Origin: Candidatus Kaiserbacteria bacterium
GTDB taxonomy: Bacteria > Patescibacteriota > Minisyncoccia > Phycocordibacterales > UBA2100
NCBI GenBank assembly: GCA_016214605.1
Contig: JACROD010000030.1
Location: forward strand, 1-28,581
Reading direction: 5' to 3'
Length of the DNA: 28,581 nucleotides
Part shown: one piece after another, positions 9,996 through 18,118 of the stretch
How the letters are laid out: the number at the start of each line of letters is the position of its first letter
How positions within the stretch are numbered: the stretch's first letter is position 1
Program-made: the position numbers and the translations under genes
Notes under the pieces: model-generated
Told to the model about the DNA's origin: nothing
What the model saw: only the letters and a program-made list of their open reading frames with translations
Databases searched by the model: none

Positions 9996-11285
9996 CTATT
10001 TCCTGCGGAGGAAAGAGGGAAGACCGCCCCAGGGGTCGTCGCTCTCAGGCTCTTCCGGGGCGCTCGGCGGTGGTGCGGGGATGACGGGGGTATGGGGAGG
10101 GATATCCATCTTGATATCGCGGATTGATTTGCCGTCTTTTTCGGGTCGATTCGCACCGGTCGCGGAATCGATGATGATCTTCACATCTTCACCGCGGCCG
10201 CGGACGGTCGCGGGCGGGACGTCGGCGTCTTTTTTCGAAGGGTTGGAGGGGATGCGGATAGAGTTGGAAGAAGGAGTGTTCGATCCCGATCCGGTACTAA
10301 AAAGAGGAGTGCGCTGTTGAGAGCTGTTTTCTGGGAATCCGGTCGCGATGACCGTGACGCGCACCTGACCCTTTTTGAGGGATTCGTCGGTGACGGCGCC
10401 GAAGATAACCTTTGCCTCCGGATCGATCGCCTCGGTAATGACTGCTGCGGCATCCTGCACTTCGAGCATGCCGAGGTCGTCTCCGCCGGCGATCGAGAAG
10501 AGTACGCCCTTGGCGCCATGGATCGAGACTTCAAGTAACGGACTATTGATAGCGGCGCGTGCGGCGAGCTCGGCGCGCTTTTCGCCCGCTGCGACTCCGA
10601 TGCCCATGAGGGCAGAGCCTGCATTTTGCATGATCGTGCGCACGTCGGCGAAATCGACGTTGATGATGCCGGTTGTGGTGATGAGATCAGAGATGCCCTC
10701 GACGGCCTGCTTCAGGATGTCATCGCACATGGCGAAGGCGTTTTTGATGCCGGTGTCGCGCGAGACGATCGAGAGCAGTTTGTCGTTGGGGACGATGATG
10801 AGTGCGTCGACGGCCTTGCGCAGATTGCTCAAGCCCTCATCGGCCAGTCGGGCGCGCGCCTGCCCCTCGAACGCGAAAGGCTTGGTCACGACGCCGACAG
10901 TGAGCGCGCCCAATTCGCGTGCAATCTTGGCGACGACCGGAGCTGCGCCGGTGCCGGTGCCTCCGCCCATGCCGCCCGTGATGAAGACCATGTCAGAGCC
11001 CTTGATCGCTTCCTGGATCTCTTCGCGCGTTTCTTCGGCGGCCTGCTTGCCGATCTCGGTGTTCATGCCAGCGCCCAAGCCTCTCGTCAGCGACCTTCCA
11101 ATATGAATCTTTTTCTTCGCTTTTGATTTGTGGAGGTCTTGAGCGTCGGTGTTGATCGCGATGAAATCAACGCCGTGGACGTTGCTTGCGACCATGTGAT
11201 TAACGGCATTGTTGCCCGATCCTCCGACGCCGATCACGCGAATTCGCGCAAATGATTCAACGTCAGTTTTTACCTGCTTTGTCAT
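9996..11285 (-). CDS. ftsZ: cell division GTPase FtsZ with a long disordered C-terminal linker and the conserved C-terminal peptide (LPSFLRRK)
   Basis: Tubulin signature [13 protein letters not shown]...GGGTGTG. Start at MTKQVKTD, with TATGAT 9 nt upstream. The track's extension to 11492 overlaps ftsA. Confidence 0.95.
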
Positions 11286-11359
11286 AGTGGGCTCATCATA
11301 GCAGATTTTCCCAAAAGAAAACTTGACACGCTCCCGTATCAATTTTCCGTATCTTCTTG

Positions 11360-12532
11360 CTATGGAAGGAGAGATTTGAACGTTTGTCGGACGGATTCGC
11401 CCGCGCTGCGCAGGATCTCCTTTATAGAGCTTGATCGGTCCACGGAGTCCTGTGCGTATGCCCAGCGGCAAAGACCGTACGCTACGGCCCATGTGGCGTC
11501 GATGCTCGAAGCGCGTGAAAGCTGGCCTATTGCGCCGATCTGAGAGGGGAGCTTCATGATGGCGCGCGCGACATCGGATGCGTTCATGAATCCGCTGCCG
11601 CCGCCGGTGATGACGATTCCCGCCGGAAGGAGACGCTGGCGGCCGATCAATTTGAGATGGGTATCGACGAGTGTGAACATGGTTTTCAGGCGCGCGGCGA
11701 TGAGCGTGTTCATCTTTTTTTCGGACACATCCGATCCGGACACGCCGCCGCGCTTGAGTTGTTCTGCTTCCGGAAGGGGGACTTGCAGCGAAAGCGCGAT
11801 CGAATTCGTTACATCAGAAGAGCCGGTCGGGAATATCTTGAGCGATATCGGCGTGTCGGCATCGAAGACGATCACCGACAAGGTCTCGGCACCGATGTTG
11901 GCGAGTACTACACCGGCCATCTTTTGCGCTTTGGTGAGCGTGACGAGGCTTGCCGCCAAAGGGGATGCCATCACGTCCTCCACCTCGACTCCGGCAGCCT
12001 CGACGGCATTGATGAGATCTTCGTGGTGTTGGGAGAGCATAGTGATCAAAAGGGTGTCGACAGAGAGTTTGGTGCCCTGCAGACCTTCGGCCTTGCCATA
12101 AACCTTTGCGCCGTCGAGACGGAATTCGAGCGGGATTGTGTGAATGACCGTGCGATTGTTGAGCTTGCCGGAGGCGCGTTTGACGCTTTCGGTCTTGGCG
12201 CGCTCAATATCGCGCTCAGTGACGACACCACCGGACGATGTGAGCGTGATCTCGCCGCTTGAGCGGATCTCATCCATCGAGACGCCGCCGACGGCCACGC
12301 GCGCGCTCTTGACGCGGACCTTGGCGGCGCTGGAGGCGCGCTGAAGAGCTTCTCGAATGCTTTTGATCGCTTCGGCTTTATCTATGATGTATCCGTGGCG
12401 CAGGCCGCGTGAGCTCGACATGCCGGTACCGAGTATCATCATGGGGATATCGGGGCGCTCGGGTGCTGCGGCGATAACGATTTTGACGTGATAGGTCCCA
12501 ATGTCGATACCAGTGTATATCTTGCCTTGCAT
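11360..12532 (-). CDS. ftsA: cell division protein FtsA
   Basis: Actin-like ATPase N-terminus [14 protein letters not shown], with the FtsA domain layout. It lies directly upstream of ftsZ. TATACT lies 8 nt upstream of the ATG. Confidence 0.9.
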
Positions 12533-13087: not shown

Positions 13088-13414
13088 TTAGCGGGCGATT
13101 GGGGTTCCTTCCCCGAGTTTGGTCGATGTATTGGAGGAGGCGTTTTCGGTTGATGTCTGGGAGCGGGGAGTGTATCCGCGGCGAGTCGGGGTCTCGGTGA
13201 CCTTACCCTCTTTGAGAAGTTGGCGGAATTCATCGCGGCGCTTGATGAGCTTGAGCGCGCGCTTTTTCTTGACGGTATTGGAGGATGCGCGTGCGTAATA
13301 GCGTTTATTACGGACTGTCTTGATGATATTGGCGCCCTGGGCGCGCCGGGTGAATCGGCGGATGGTAGAAAGGGCGTTTTCAGTGCCCGTCTTGGTTACT
13401 TCTGCATTTATCAT
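13088..13414 (-). CDS. rpsU: 30S ribosomal protein S21 with a C-terminal extension of about 40 aa
   Basis: TIRRFTRR...KTVRNKRYYARASS...KKKRALKLIKRR aligns with the S21 core. 108 aa compared with about 70 aa typical. Confidence 0.75.
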   Translation of the reverse strand: MINAEVTKTGTENALSTIRRFTRRAQGANIIKTVRNKRYYARASSNTVKKKRALKLIKRRDEFRQLLKEGKVTETPTRRGYTPRSQTSTENASSNTSTKLGEGTPIAR

Positions 13415-13452
13415 GTGATGACAAATATATCATGGGACCCTATAAAAGGCAA

Positions 13453-13480
13453 CATATGTGGGTTGTCATATGTGGGTTGT
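13453..13480. repeat. tandem direct repeat 2 x 14 bp (catatgtgggttgt)
   Basis: Exact tandem duplication. It abuts the displaced hisS 3' fragment. Confidence 0.8.
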
Positions 13481-13485
13481 CCAGA

Positions 13486-13600
13486 TCAGGCGGGAACTCG
13501 TGGCCGGGTGATCGAACGGTGGCGCTTCAGGTAGCTGACCAGCTCATCTATTGGCACGGCATTTTGGGAGTTGGTCGCGACTTCGCGCACGTCGTCCGTC
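13486..13600 (-). pseudogene. displaced 3' fragment of a hisS-like gene (direct-repeat copy A). It encodes ...VREVATNSQNAVPIDELVSYLKRHRSITRPRVPA* with no start codon
   Basis: About 80% nt identity to 15925-16030, with a 36-bp identical core (13556-13591 = 15984-16019). 12 of 14 codon differences are synonymous. The open frame runs from an in-frame TAA (13651-13653) to TGA and contains no ATG. Confidence 0.6.
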
Positions 13601-13610
13601 AATTTTATGA

Positions 13611-13647
13611 CAAAAAAATAGGGCTGTTCGCTTTGCGCGAACAGCCC
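13611..13647 (-). terminator. rho-independent terminator of the flotillin gene: 11-bp stem gggctgttcgc/gcgaacagccc, followed on the minus strand by a T7 run
   Basis: Perfect inverted repeat. Plus-strand A7 run at 13612-13618. Confidence 0.6.
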
Positions 13648-13672
13648 TTCTTAAGGTGCTTAGATGATTAGA

Positions 13673-15775
13673 TCAAGATGGCATGTGTCCGCCATTGCCG
13701 AGAGAATGATTGTCTTTTTCCGTGGCGGGAACAACCGCCTTGGAAGGAACTTCTTCCTCGATCTGCGTGGTGGTAGGTTTCGATGAACGACGCAGGAAGC
13801 TCATCAACTGAGGCATCAATCCATTGACGCCACCGATGCCATTCTCGCCACCGATCGTGACGGCGAGATTCTCCGGCATGAACCGTTGTGTGCCCAATGC
13901 CAACGCCTTGATGGCATTGATGAAGGCCGTTTGGTCCTTGCCGACTGCCTTTTGTTGAGCTTCGAGGCCTGCCGCGACAGCAAGTCCCTGTGCTTCGGTC
14001 TCAACAGCTTTGGCCTTACCGACTTCAGTAAGTCGGAATGCCTCGCCTTCAGCCGCTTTTTTGACCGCTTGCGCCAAATTGTCAGCGATAGTAATGCCGA
14101 CCTCAGATTTTGCAAGATCGGCTTGCTGGTCGGCCTTGCCTTTCGCAGCTTCCAGATCGAGACGCTTGTCTTGCGCCTCTTTCTCGGCTGTAAAGGTCGC
14201 CTTCTGTTGGTTGGCGATTTCACGTGCGGTGAGCACTATGACCAGTTCACTCGGAAGAACGACATCTTGGATATACACGCCGCGTGTTTCCACCCGGTAC
14301 TCTTTCAACCGATTGGCGATGTGATCCTGCGCTTGCTGCTGGACCTCTTGCCGCTCCTCAATGAACTTAATTGCAGGCATGCTCTGTAGTTTGTCGCGGA
14401 AATGGTTGCCCACCGCCGCCTGCAGGACCTCATTGACGAGGTTGTTCATGGTCCCAACGATCGAGATCACTTTCGGCGCCTCGGTGTCCGGCACATGGAT
14501 CTGAACTTGCAGATCGATTTTGAACACGAAACCTTCTTTCGACTTCGCGACGATCTGCTTGAGGTCCTTGTCCAGATTATGTGCGGTTGACGTCGCCTCG
14601 GCCCAGTTGAGGGTGAGGATAAACGTCGGCACCTTCTCGTGACTATATACGCGAGGATTGATCGCGTATTTGCCGGTACGCAACGGCTCTTGCCAAATGC
14701 CGCGGTGTCCGGGCCGGACGAGGGAGCCGAATTTGAAGTCGGCCCCAGACGTGTCTTCGGTCGCAAGACCGACGTACGCCTTAATAACCACAACCTCACC
14801 CTGATTCACGACGAGCATAGGAACCATCTCGACAGATACCAGGAACGGATTGAGATTGTAGGCGCCATAGAGCAGTGGATCATGCTGAAGACCGATCCGA
14901 CCACCCTTGTCGAGGAAGGCCTGGAAGTCTTGGTAGTTGTTGTGAGCATCATTCTTGCTGGCGAGAATCATCTCGACCAGTTCGCTGTCCTTCGTCCCTG
15001 TGCCCCTTTTCTCGGCGCCATCAATGTCTTGGAAGTCGCCAAGGCGGTTTGCCATCGCGCCCTTGGGTGAAGGTTCGCCCTCGAGTGTCGTTACGATGCC
15101 GATCATGTCGACGATCTTGTCGACGATCTTGTCGTCACGATCTTCTTTCTTTGGTGCGATACGGACAACCTTCATTTGGTCATCCGTGAGACTGAACGAC
15201 TTATGGGTGAACGTACTTCCTCCTCTCGCTTGTATGAGATGGAGGTATTCGTCTGCCACCGGGACACCATAGACATGATTCAAGGTGACGATGAGGAAGC
15301 CGACAGGATGGATCATTGCCACGGTGCCGGGAGGTAATACCGGGCGTTGCACGCCGCGTTGGCCGCCGCTATTCAAGAATGCTCGGATGTCTTGGAAGTT
15401 ACCGAACTCTTTCATATACAGAGCGGACTTTGCTCCCATGGGGAGCGGAGCGCCGATCTGCGAGATCACGATGCCGATCTGTCCGGCAGGGATCTGCACA
15501 AACGGATGACATGTCACCGTATAGAGCGGCCAAAGTTTGAAGCGGATACCAGTCATCAGTAGTTCGGCCTGGTAACCCGCCTCACCATTGAATGCAATCG
15601 GGCCATTGCCTTGCTTCCAACTCAGTCGCTTCTGTACCAGACCGACTTCATTCGGCGGAATCTTCCAAAATGACATGCACGCGATAATCGCGACCGCGAT
15701 CAGCGCACCCAATATCCAGCCTATCCCTGCCATAGAGGCGAAAATAGCGCCGATACCACTGAGAATTCCCATCAT
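13673..15775 (-). CDS. flotillin-like SPFH/Band-7 domain membrane protein (FloT/YqiK-like), about 700 aa
   Basis: N-terminal 2 TM, then KIPPNEVGLVQKRLS at the start of the SPFH domain. Long Ala/Glu/Gln-rich coiled-coil C-terminus typical of flotillins. AAGGAG SD lies 7 nt before ATGATG. The TTG start of the track at 15796 was rejected. Confidence 0.85.
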   Translation of the reverse strand: MMGILSGIGAIFASMAGIGWILGALIAVAIIACMSFWKIPPNEVGLVQKRLSWKQGNGPIAFNGEAGYQAELLMTGIRFKLWPLYTVTCHPFVQIPAGQIGIVISQIGAPLPMGAKSALYMKEFGNFQDIRAFLNSGGQRGVQRPVLPPGTVAMIHPVGFLIVTLNHVYGVPVADEYLHLIQARGGSTFTHKSFSLTDDQMKVVRIAPKKEDRDDKIVDKIVDMIGIVTTLEGEPSPKGAMANRLGDFQDIDGAEKRGTGTKDSELVEMILASKNDAHNNYQDFQAFLDKGGRIGLQHDPLLYGAYNLNPFLVSVEMVPMLVVNQGEVVVIKAYVGLATEDTSGADFKFGSLVRPGHRGIWQEPLRTGKYAINPRVYSHEKVPTFILTLNWAEATSTAHNLDKDLKQIVAKSKEGFVFKIDLQVQIHVPDTEAPKVISIVGTMNNLVNEVLQAAVGNHFRDKLQSMPAIKFIEERQEVQQQAQDHIANRLKEYRVETRGVYIQDVVLPSELVIVLTAREIANQQKATFTAEKEAQDKRLDLEAAKGKADQQADLAKSEVGITIADNLAQAVKKAAEGEAFRLTEVGKAKAVETEAQGLAVAAGLEAQQKAVGKDQTAFINAIKALALGTQRFMPENLAVTIGGENGIGGVNGLMPQLMSFLRRSSKPTTTQIEEEVPSKAVVPATEKDNHSLGNGGHMPS

Positions 15776-15848
15776 GGGAAAGCTCCTTATTATCAAGGTT
15801 CATACCGATTTCTTTATCGGTAGACCGCACAAATGTGCGATCAGGAGA

Positions 15849-15876
15849 ACTATAGAGTAATTCTGCTTTATGTCAA
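15849..15876 (-). promoter_or_regulatory. sigma70-like promoter TTGACA-16 nt-TATAGT for the flotillin gene
   Basis: -35 = rc of 15871-15876. -10 = rc of 15849-15854. Confidence 0.5.
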
Positions 15877-15913
15877 ATACAAATGATAGGCGAGTATTTT
15901 GGGCGATTGAGAT

Positions 15914-17152
15914 CTACACCCCCACGCGTGGCCGCGTGATAGATCGGTGACGTTTGAGATAGCTGACCAGGTCTGCGATCGGAACGGCATTTTGGGAGTT
16001 GGTCGCGACTTCGCGCACGATGATCGTCCCTTCGCTCGCCTCTTTGTGGCCAAAGATCAAGATATACGGCGTACCAAGGGCTTGGGCGCGTCCCATCTGC
16101 TCGGTTATACGGTCATGCCAGAGGCTATGATGTACATGAATATTCGCCCGTCGGAGATTCTCCAGGATGCCGAGAGAGCGTTGTCGTGCGATGCCGCCCA
16201 GATGCGCAAAATAGATAGCCGGTACAGCCTCGATGGGGCGCACGGGTTTTTGTGGAGATGGTTTTGTGCCGCCATTCATCTCATAAGTGATGGAGATCAT
16301 AGCTGCGTTTCTTGGTGAGCGTGCGAAACGGCTTATCAAAGGATCATACCGCCCGCCGAACGCCACCGGTGCCCGTAAGCCTGTAGCCGCATCAACTTGG
16401 GATATTTCAAAGAGCGAGTGCGACCAGCATTCGCGGCTTCCAAGGATCTGTCCGTTCAGTTCATAGGGGAGGCCGGTCGCCTCCAAATATTCGAGGAGTT
16501 CCCAAAAGCGAGCGCGCTCTTCTTCGGTGAGATATTCCATCGCTTGTGGAGCACGAGGGACTGCCGGATGTCCACGTTCGATCAATTGTACGAGAGTGCC
16601 GAGCGGATCCGTCGCTGCACGCGGTCGGAGCGAAGGAGAGATTGATTCGATATGTTTGCGCAGATACAATCCGACATCGCGGATATATCTGCCGGAGGAC
16701 TCCGAAGATCCGATGTTGTTAATGAGGATGATGCGGTCCTCGACCCCTGCTTCTTGTGCGATCGCGCTTGCTACTATAATGAGAAGGGCTTCGGCGATCG
16801 TGCTCGGAGTACCGAGAATATGGAGCTCGAGCGACACCGATGGCGATGCACTGGTATTGGGCATAATACGCCAAGCGAGCACGGTATCGCGCGACGGCCC
16901 CATACGAGAGACAAATTTTTTGGCAGCGCTCGGCAGCGTACGCTCGTCTCGCCGCGTAAAGTTGATCTCATTCTCTATTTTCACGCTCTCCTTTTTGCGC
17001 TTTTCTCCAGCATTCAATCCTTTGGCATTTCGCTCTCTTGCGGTCTGTTCTATTTCGTCGAGCGGTACGAAGCCGTAATACTCGGCTACGGCGATCGCTT
17101 TCTGCAAAAGAGCGTCGGTAGACTGGCGGGCCCCATCCTTGAGTCTGATCAT
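15914..17152 (-). CDS. hisS: histidyl-tRNA synthetase family protein (HisS/HisZ-like) with a divergent, shortened catalytic core
   Basis: GGRYDPLISRF (HisRS GGRYD motif). LINNIGSSES versus the HisRS LE(I/L)NS(I/L)GS region. C-terminal anticodon-binding-like domain. A block of about 45 aa around class II motif 2 and RPEGT appears to be missing. Start at MIRLKDG. The track's extension to 17359 overlaps lepB. Confidence 0.65.
   Translation of the reverse strand: MIRLKDGARQSTDALLQKAIAVAEYYGFVPLDEIEQTARERNAKGLNAGEKRKKESVKIENEINFTRRDERTLPSAAKKFVSRMGPSRDTVLAWRIMPNTSASPSVSLELHILGTPSTIAEALLIIVASAIAQEAGVEDRIILINNIGSSESSGRYIRDVGLYLRKHIESISPSLRPRAATDPLGTLVQLIERGHPAVPRAPQAMEYLTEEERARFWELLEYLEATGLPYELNGQILGSRECWSHSLFEISQVDAATGLRAPVAFGGRYDPLISRFARSPRNAAMISITYEMNGGTKPSPQKPVRPIEAVPAIYFAHLGGIARQRSLGILENLRRANIHVHHSLWHDRITEQMGRAQALGTPYILIFGHKEASEGTIIVREVATNSQNAVPIADLVSYLKRHRSITRPRVGV
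15925..16030. repeat. direct-repeat copy B: the real 3' end of the hisS-like gene, homologous to 13498-13600
   Basis: See copy A. It encodes the real C-terminus ...VREVATNSQNAVPIADLVSYLKRHRSITRPRVGV*. Confidence 0.8.
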
Positions 17153-17171
17153 GTGCAGATAATCGTTACCA

Positions 17172-17795
17172 TTAAGTGGCGGTATTGTTGTTATACCGGG
17201 CTTCAGCGGGAAATACACCGATCCCATTGAAGGGATACAGTCTGAAAAGGACGCGTCCGACAATGTCGGATCGAGGCAAAATACCCCACAAACGCGAATC
17301 AGCGGAGACTTTTCTGTTGTCGCCGAGTACAAAATACTGATCCTTGCCCAAAACGACATTCATATCAGAAGCTCCGCCGAAGTTTTTGGGGCTGATGTAA
17401 GGCTCATTGAGTGTCATGCCGTCAGGATGTGCGTCATTTATGATAGTGACCGTGGGAGCGGGCCCTTTGATCTCTACAGTCTCGCCAGGGAGGCCGATGA
17501 CACGCTTGATAAGCGCTCGTCCGGTGTCTTGTGGCAGGTCAAGGACGATCACATCGCCGCGTTGTGGCGTCTCGAGCCGGTAGGTGACGCGATCTACAAT
17601 CAAATAATTCCAGTTATCGAAGTTGGGCTCCATGGAAGAGCCGACAACGATGTATGGAGCGGCGATGAAGAAACGGATGATGAGTGCTACACCGAGCGCG
17701 ATGACGAGATAGAAGAAAAATGATCGCTCAGTTTTAACAATACCAATAGTTGGTTCCGGTGATGAGACATTTTGATGCATCACGGGATCAGTCAT
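17172..17795 (-). CDS. lepB: signal peptidase I
   Basis: N-terminal TM, then GSSMEPNF (catalytic Ser), KRVIGLPGE (Lys) and GDNRKVSADSRLWG box E. Start at MTDPVMH, with TAGAAT 8 nt upstream. Confidence 0.85.
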   Translation of the reverse strand: MTDPVMHQNVSSPEPTIGIVKTERSFFFYLVIALGVALIIRFFIAAPYIVVGSSMEPNFDNWNYLIVDRVTYRLETPQRGDVIVLDLPQDTGRALIKRVIGLPGETVEIKGPAPTVTIINDAHPDGMTLNEPYISPKNFGGASDMNVVLGKDQYFVLGDNRKVSADSRLWGILPRSDIVGRVLFRLYPFNGIGVFPAEARYNNNTAT

Positions 17796-18118
17796 GTACG
17801 CACATTCTACTGCGAGTATGCCGTTGACGCAAAGTATCTCGGTGTGTTGCATCAGAGAAAAATATTTTTGCAGACACGCGTAATCAAAACATCTTCGCGG
17901 CGCAATTATTTTTTGCCTGCGGAACTCGCCTACTGGCTCAAACAGGTCGGTCACTGCTATGACCGACACGTTAGTGGATGCTTTGTATATAATGCGGCAC
18001 TACTTTATTCTGGTAAGAGTTGGACTAATTTCGCGTAGCTTTACCACCAGTCCTCGGCTGCAAAATATTTGCGCCGCGAAGATGTTCAACACCCGATTGT
18101 TTGTTAGAATGGTGCGAT

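Follow-up and report, generated by a model that had tools for sequence, protein, structure and literature searches.

How can a gene of apparently foreign ancestry settle in the very end of an essential gene, leave that gene intact, and bring no recognizable recombinase with it? This question is raised by a metagenome-assembled contig of a groundwater Candidatus Kaiserbacteria (HZC00), a member of the candidate phyla radiation (CPR), or Patescibacteria, of which we analyzed a stretch of 28,581 nt, referred to here in its entirety as the window. Within it, a gene for an SPFH/flotillin-like protein (NCBI HZC00_05220) stands between hisS, which encodes a histidyl-tRNA synthetase (HisRS)-like protein, and an S21-like gene. 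All genes concerned lie on the minus strand, in the order lepB (17172-17969), hisS (15914-17152 as annotated), the flotillin-like gene (13673-15775), the S21-like gene (13088-13414), and then ybeY, ftsA, and ftsZ. The account we favor, and consider reasonably probable, is that a 2.43-kb cassette entered the 3' end of hisS by a single reciprocal crossover with a circular molecule, within a 36-nt block that the two shared.

The evidence begins with a duplication of the end of hisS. The window holds a single long repeat family, consisting of two direct copies of 105 nt with 83% identity, at 13496-13600 (copy A) and 15924-16028 (copy B), spaced 2428 nt apart; the repeat finder and a MAFFT alignment agree on this, and when the hisS end was aligned locally with the region downstream of it, the score reached z = 43.7 relative to shuffles. 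Both copies contain the 36-mer ACGGCATTTTGGGAGTTGGTCGCGACTTCGCGCACG, and the window has precisely these two occurrences of it, 13556-13591 (core A) and 15984-16019 (core B). It has no third copy there even at three or fewer mismatches, and it found no match in 100 shuffles. Core B lies within hisS on the minus strand and encodes VREVATNSQNAV; the VREVATNSQ peptide of this segment is near-invariant across 120 HisRS homologues. The actual 3' end of hisS is copy B, which reads ...VREVATNSQNAVPIADLVSYLKRHRSITRPRVGV up to the stop codon, and copy A, translated from the minus strand in the same frame, reads ...VREVATNSQNAVPIDELVSYLKRHRSITRPRVPA and likewise ends in a stop. A preliminary description of this DNA, made from the sequence alone, had already reported the repeats, their identical core, the shared frame and peptide, and the largely synonymous nature of the codon differences, and our analysis bears out all of these. 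It had also stated that copy A lacks a start codon. This is correct insofar as there is neither an ATG nor a Shine-Dalgarno (SD) sequence, but in-frame TTG and GTG codons do lie just upstream, and the resulting open reading frame (ORF) is merely 38 codons long.

Past the core, each copy continues into a tail that ends at a hisS stop codon. Tail B (15914-15983, minus strand, PIADLVSYLKRHRSITRPRVGV and stop) is the 3' end now joined to hisS, and tail A (13486-13555, minus strand, PIDELVSYLKRHRSITRPRVPA and stop) is a displaced hisS end, detached from the gene with its frame intact. Fourteen codons differ between the V and the RPRV of the two copies, and 12 of these differences are synonymous. 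Across the 21 codons past the core, the copies differ at 14/21 third positions versus 1/42 first and second positions. By the Nei-Gojobori method, the proportion of synonymous differences (pS) between the tails is 0.70, which is near saturation, and that of nonsynonymous differences (pN) is 0.055, a pN/pS of ~0.08, so the dN/dS comparison called for in the preliminary description upholds near-synonymous divergence. Compared with hisS tails from other species, either copy differs at 11-16 of 21 third positions, and the synonymous distance between the two tails is of the same size. Since the differences are almost all synonymous, the two tails diverged as working gene ends in separate lineages, not through decay in place. 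Tail A itself shows no sign of decay, from which we suggest that the insertion is recent.

The core behaves very differently from the tail beside it. There are no differences over the 36 nt of the core versus 15 over 63 nt of tail (Fisher p about 5e-4 to 8e-4), and in the MAFFT alignment the repeat has a sharp 5' boundary at the core. Relatives differ from this 36-nt block at 5-8 of its 12 third positions, and its identity within the window is therefore not explained by conservation alone; the exact core is best read as a tract of exchange or conversion.

Only the flotillin-like gene lies between the copies, and, as previously described, it carries its own expression signals. Reading along the minus strand, these comprise a promoter-like site, TTGACA-16-TATAGT (15849..15876), that matches 11/12 positions in a promoter scan, an AAGGAG SD sequence (15783-15788) upstream of the ATG at 15775, and an intrinsic terminator (13613..13648, with the hairpin at 13620-13648) composed of a 12-bp stem, a 5-nt loop, and a T7 run. 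The T-run ends 21 nt short of core A (13556..13591, minus strand). The 700-aa product is a predicted membrane protein with a hydrophobic N-terminus and a PF01145 (Band_7) match over residues 330-541 (E=3.8e-18), and its homologues are variously labeled HflC or YqiK-like in their sources.

The target gene (NCBI HZC00_05225) encodes 412 aa as annotated. Its product matches the HGTP_anticodon domain (E=9.7e-13), which is all that Pfam sees of it, with no catalytic-domain match at E<=0.001; HisRS chains in the PDB align to residues 112-399, with E values down to 6e-21. On these matches, we regard it as a divergent histidyl-tRNA synthetase. The mechanical hisS ORF (15914-17359, 481 aa) overlaps lepB by ~190 nt, and the annotated start at 17152 is the one that fits the relatives.

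We compared this locus with those of related organisms by using the HisRS-like protein to scan a set of genomes with a single representative of each species; the scan yielded 54 loci, all from Kaiserbacteria/Paceibacterota metagenome-assembled genomes (MAGs). Closer relatives were taken from a protein database and then located on 10 further metagenome contigs, 7 of which extend past hisS; the other three (L058, L059, and L055) stop shortly after it. The genes pth (oriented leftward), lepB, hisS, S21, ybeY, ftsA, and ftsZ are conserved throughout the 54 loci. A flotillin gene at the hisS locus gave no tblastn match in any of the 54 and is absent from the 10 further contigs. Both hisS and S21 are present in 46 of the genome loci, with a gap of 20-230 nt in ~30 and of 550-3300 nt in 16. 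The direct succession of hisS and S21 that the preliminary description had proposed to look for is thus found in ~30/46 genome loci, and it is found as well in L057 (81% HisRS identity), L142 (76%), L143 (74%), and L145 (65%). Other close relatives hold different genes at this position: an unrelated 177-aa ORF follows hisS in L055 and L056 (83 and 82% HisRS identity) and in L043, with no trace of it in the window, and a HicB-like gene separates hisS from S21 in L144. An S21-like gene lies 3' of hisS in about 50 related loci. From the direct adjacency in the closest relatives, and the presence of the flotillin gene nowhere else among these loci, the ancestral arrangement is hisS-S21, with a lineage-specific insertion of the flotillin gene in the window only.

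The gap between hisS and S21 is a hotspot for cargo more generally. Inserts of 0.55-3.3 kb occupy it in 16/46 genome loci, and their contents are unrelated to one another, including transglutaminase-like, HAD hydrolase, methyltransferase, tRNA-binding domain, MqsA-like, and HicB-like antitoxin proteins and several secreted or otherwise uncharacterized proteins. In a search limited to this site, no integrase, whether judged by ORF size or by similarity to the Phage_integrase type, was found at the ~20 occupied positions among about 60 related loci. Two independent assemblies of a 77%-identical relative (L058 and L059) both end ~150 nt after hisS (contig ends ~9400), and variability between strains, or repeats located here, may be the cause of these breaks.

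One of the occupied loci shows the signature of the window independently. In L014, a HAD hydrolase gene (11230-11913) lies between a hisS tail, ..RRRRIGGRAEALA and stop, and a tail remnant, ..RRRIGGRAEAHI and stop, that stands 66 nt upstream of S21. The two repeat copies (11180-11224 and 11953-11995) share a 20-nt identical 5' block, followed by 3 synonymous changes and then 2 divergent last codons. The boundary of this repeat falls ~45 nt before the stop, versus 105 nt in the window, and both boundaries fall in peptide blocks that are near-invariant across the 120 homologues, YLKRRR in L014 and VREVATNSQ here. L007 and L011 carry the same HAD gene with the same left junction as L014 and no remnant.

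Where did the cargo come from? The preliminary description had proposed that the flotillin gene was acquired horizontally, and both its homologues and its absence from the hisS loci of relatives support this. In a search of 5.8 billion proteins, none was more than 78% identical to the cargo. The next-best homologues are 70-78% identical, and all of those named to a taxon are alphaproteobacterial (Stellaceae, Rhizomicrobium, and Acetobacteraceae); a cluster look-up for further taxon names added only one more Rhizomicrobium. The neighbors of the best match are genes for an amidase, a radical-SAM enzyme, and a molybdenum-cofactor enzyme, which is not a CPR gene set. Among 80 metagenome loci with flotillin relatives, the median guanine-plus-cytosine (GC) content is 61% and contigs reach 1.9 Mb, so the best homologues belong to bacteria with high GC content and large genomes. 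DNA similarity of these loci to the window stops within the coding sequence, and none of them has a hisS tail nearby or shares the noncoding flanks of the cassette. The 36-nt core is absent from IMG/VR, where the cargo homologues are just 51-55% identical; plasmid homologues fall below 40% identity, and there was no match to phage DNA. The cargo therefore appears to be of foreign origin, ultimately from non-CPR bacteria. A low-GC contig from the 0.2 um fraction of Hainich groundwater (L121, GC 41%) encodes a 58%-identical flotillin-like homologue and could represent another small-genome organism with this SPFH family.

We also considered base composition, which had been suggested as a marker of the island. 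GC content was uninformative in this role, at 54.1% for the cargo and 54.3% for the window, and the codon usage of the cargo is within the host range. Tetranucleotide usage was mildly deviant: its correlation across the cargo was 0.75, the lowest in the contig, for which the mean was 0.86 (sd 0.044). Because the cargo is already adjusted to ~54% GC, its immediate donor was probably a Kaiserbacteria-like genome or an element resident in one, and tail B is itself of Kaiserbacteria type. Taken together, the foreign affinity of the cargo, its host-like GC content and codon usage, and the Kaiserbacteria-type tail B point to two stages, an old transfer from a non-CPR bacterium into a Kaiserbacteria-like genome or element, followed recently by passage of the complete cassette into the genome studied here.

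How, then, would the cassette have entered? We propose that the incoming circle carried the core, tail B (the final 22 codons of hisS, in a version particular to the circle), the promoter, the flotillin gene, the terminator, and a 21-nt spacer, and that the crossover took place within the 36-nt block encoding the conserved VREVATNSQNAV segment. Following such an event, the hisS reading frame would pass from the core into the imported tail B, keeping the gene intact, and the native tail A would be orphaned beyond the terminator of the cargo, with its connection to the native S21 promoter preserved. The resulting 2.43-kb cassette would consist of a surrogate hisS tail, a promoter, the SPFH/flotillin-like gene, and a terminator, and both tails would have evolved earlier as functional gene ends in different Kaiserbacteria lineages. 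Since the repeat boundaries of L014 and the window differ, and both lie on conserved peptide blocks, we lean slightly toward a homology-driven crossover (RecA-type, as in the Campbell model) over a dedicated integrase acting in trans. Campbell-type single-crossover integration, as with suicide plasmids, is known mainly as a laboratory tool. It leaves direct repeats of the homology on either side of the insert, with one hybrid copy joined to the gene and a second one orphaned, and calls for no dedicated recombinase, much as proposed here; it does not account for the natural source of a 2.4-kb circle or for the shortness of the homology in the window (105 nt, of which 36 exact).

This proposal also bears on which of the two tails is native. 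The preliminary description had assigned copy A to a functional hisS gene of another lineage. The signature of purifying selection on which that reasoning depended holds, but the polarity is probably the reverse, with copy A as the displaced native tail and tail B as the one that arrived with the cassette; we regard the case for this as moderately strong, though not certain. A crossover in the core would make the entire segment from one core to the other imported DNA, tail B included. Tail A is continuous with an S21 promoter region, TTGCCTTTTATAGGG...ATGATATATT, that is near base-for-base common to L043, L056, and L057. Its last codons are CCC-GCC-TGA-T, and the four closest relatives with comparable tails (L055, L056, L057, and L043) all end in xxx-GCC-TGA-T, whereas tail B ends in GGG-GTG-TAG. 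At the protein level, HisRS C termini in this clade are -NA, -LA, -FA, or -HA; tail A ends in -PA and tail B in -GV. Short blastn matches were tried as a test of polarity and gave conflicting answers, with copy A resembling L058 (80% over 92 nt) and copy B resembling L055 (90% over 39 nt).

Several points weigh against the crossover account or the polarity that goes with it. The polarity argument draws on two terminal codons and on topology; the synonymous sites are saturated and do not discriminate between the tails; and tail B has the 39-nt stretch with 90% identity to L055. A core that is identical at 36/36 positions beside a saturated tail requires prior identity or gene conversion. Neither the 5.8 billion proteins nor the metagenome scan contained a donor in which a hisS gene ending in RPRVGV and a stop is followed by flotillin. 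Duplication of the tail is also not the general rule at the hotspot: of the 16 occupied genome loci, L014 alone is positive for a tail remnant and 14-15 are negative, as are L056 and L144. Finally, an integrase could be encoded outside the 28.5-kb window.

The last of these points leads to the strongest competitor, which we consider a distinctly less probable but serious alternative: insertion by a site-specific tyrosine or serine integrase, of the type by which e14 and phage 21 enter icd. The insert would then be what is left of a larger, decayed island whose integrase was lost, or an element resembling a cis-mobilizable element (CIME) and served in trans by an integrase from another part of the genome or from a related element, and the 36-nt core would be the identity block of its attachment (att) sites. 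The architecture is that of e14 in icd, in which the 3' end of the target is replaced and the native end persists on the far side as the 163-bp pseudo-fragment icd', so that attL and attR are homologous (PMC6379469, PMC13626634). As with e14 and phage 21, the gene entered inside its 3' end is protein coding and essential or central, and the element brings a replacement 3' end whose differences are mainly synonymous or conservative. The window thus offers target-derived direct repeats, an intact hisS accompanied by an orphaned end, and an empty site in relatives. It does not offer a recombinase: the insert is one SPFH gene, and Pfam finds no integrase, transposase, or phage gene in the window, as the preliminary description had stated for integrases. 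The systems differ in other respects as well, e14 being a prophage remnant of 15 kb that encodes its own integrase and excises upon SOS induction, and the window insert being 2.4 kb with one cargo gene, with tails that are far more diverged (saturated at third positions) and a CPR bacterium as its host.

CIMEs by definition keep attL and attR while their integration genes are lost (PMC5704250). Set beside CIMEs such as those flanked by att sites of the ICESt1/ICESt3 type, the window has repeats that are at most candidate att sites, and no recombination or transfer genes were found in it. The sharp 5' edge of the repeat at the core also fits an att site, and 6/10 matches immediately upstream of the core could be a decayed, hisS-derived arm of attP. 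However, a CIME presupposes a cognate integrase of an integrative and conjugative or mobilizable element, and none was found at the occupied hisS-S21 sites surveyed above. The cassette has no spare or decayed DNA, its noncoding flanks amounting to only 118 nt and 72 nt, and the reconstructed attP, or circle junction, has no arm-type repeats. In addition, the repeat in L014 begins at a different hisS position, which argues against one shared att core, and the 36 nt of identity next to a saturated tail is left unexplained. Given the different boundary in L014 and the lack of any integrase in the window or at the ~20 occupied sites, we do not uphold the preliminary reading of this locus as a footprint of site-specific integration, and we retain crossover with a circle as the preferred explanation.

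A circle is not needed if linear DNA was taken up from a related hisS-flotillin lineage, for example by natural transformation, and joined by homology-facilitated illegitimate recombination (HFIR), a route that we consider improbable. In this case the homologous join would lie in the hisS tail and the illegitimate join 105 nt upstream on the sister copy, with the core duplicated from the recipient. Recipient origin of both cores would predict the identity that they show, a short GACG/C..C microhomology is present at the right junction, and among the products of the window is a pilus assembly protein of the PilM type. Competent bacteria are documented to undergo HFIR (PMC3240628). Typically, however, HFIR causes deletion, not duplication, of recipient DNA. 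The route also requires two chromosome copies, and it explains the parallel structure in L014 no better than a circle does.

We judge it very unlikely that the arrangement is an assembly artefact, in which the true chromosome would read hisS-core-tail A-S21 and the core-tail B-flotillin segment would come from a separate molecule or a second strain, threaded in through the shared 36-mer. The contig is metagenome assembled, and the assemblies of L058 and L059 break at a similar place. However, both junctions join flotillin DNA to Kaiserbacteria-type hisS sequence, and at least the join of terminator, 21 nt, and core must therefore be present in real reads. Furthermore, typical reads and final k-mers are longer than a 36-nt repeat, a 2.4-kb circle existing free with no replication gene is implausible, and the GC content of the cargo equals that of the host. 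The remaining alternative, tandem duplication of the hisS tail in place with decay of the downstream copy and an unrelated flotillin insertion between the two, would account for direct repeats in the same frame but can be dismissed almost outright, as the differences are near-purely synonymous and saturated, the abrupt switch from 0/36 to 15/63 is unexpected under uniform decay, and even the most favorable model of decay after duplication predicts at least 56% nonsynonymous differences where ~17% are observed (p about 9e-4).

Two other classes of mobile DNA invite comparison. Like an integron cassette, the insert is a mobile unit of one gene, and its fixed place in the chromosome is filled by different cargo from lineage to lineage; unlike one, it has no attC-like imperfect palindrome, attI, or IntI, and it has its own terminator and its own promoter, which integron cassettes usually lack. 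Apart from the terminator, there are no inverted repeats in the cassette. An insertion sequence or transposon was rejected, there being no terminal inverted repeats, a duplication that is 105 nt long and diverged, and no transposase in the window. We therefore describe the locus as an integrase-less, single-gene islet with a surrogate tail, in the essential aminoacyl-tRNA synthetase gene of a CPR bacterium and at a cargo hotspot of its clade, which on present sequence comparisons makes it a variant of the e14/icd and CIME pattern.

A bolder generalization, which we hold to be unlikely but worth stating, is that the hisS 3' end of Kaiserbacteria serves as a docking site for integrase-free single-gene cassettes, each carrying a mimic of the tail of the essential gene and moving from lineage to lineage as a small circle that host homologous recombination loops out and inserts again at conserved codon blocks. 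If this were true, cassettes would be exchanged independently of recombinases in genome-reduced CPR bacteria, the flotillin gene and the HAD gene of L014 would be two captured cases, and the ~20 differently filled hisS-S21 sites would be older products.

The remaining features of the locus lie downstream of tail A. Abutting copy A, as previously noted, is a tandem repeat of 2 x 14 nt, CATATGTGGGTTGT (13453..13480), which is unique in the window and whose 14-nt unit has no more copies there. It occupies the place where relatives hold a strong terminator hairpin, past the stop codon of hisS and ahead of the promoter of S21 (L057:1540-1590, L056:4375-4420, and L043:12050-12095), and the window has no such hairpin. 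S21 is now insulated by the flotillin terminator. The native downstream unit (13088..13452, minus strand) comprises a promoter-like site identified by promoter scan (13452..13424), whose sequence is conserved in L043, L056, and L057, and the small basic S21-like gene, which has no Pfam match at E<=0.001. An Rfam scan of the whole window found nothing. Further along, the mechanical ftsZ ORF (9996-11492, 498 aa) overlaps the end of ftsA (11360-12532) by ~130 nt, and because most relatives align only from residue 60-70 on, the true ftsZ start is probably later. Other boundaries in the cluster also hold additional DNA: inserts of 1.3-1.8 kb occur between ybeY and ftsA in L008, L025, and L039, and in L142 (7719-11210) S21 is separated from ftsA by the gene for a 1042-aa fn3-domain protein and by an ORF of 88 aa, with no ybeY called there.

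CPR bacteria have small genomes with few recognizable mobile elements, and the routes by which they acquire genes are little known. This locus provides a case, resolved to the base pair, in which a gene of proteobacterial ancestry sits in the end of an essential gene whose function is preserved by a surrogate tail, and about one third of the sampled relatives hold different cargo at the same intergenic position. If an integrase was involved and has been lost or acts in trans, the locus would be one more case of the e14/icd pattern, and its value would lie mainly in annotation, with tail A to be labeled a hisS pseudo-fragment and horizontal acquisition to be recorded for the flotillin gene. If instead the insertion was driven by homology, these bacteria could gain genes without dedicated mobile-element machinery.

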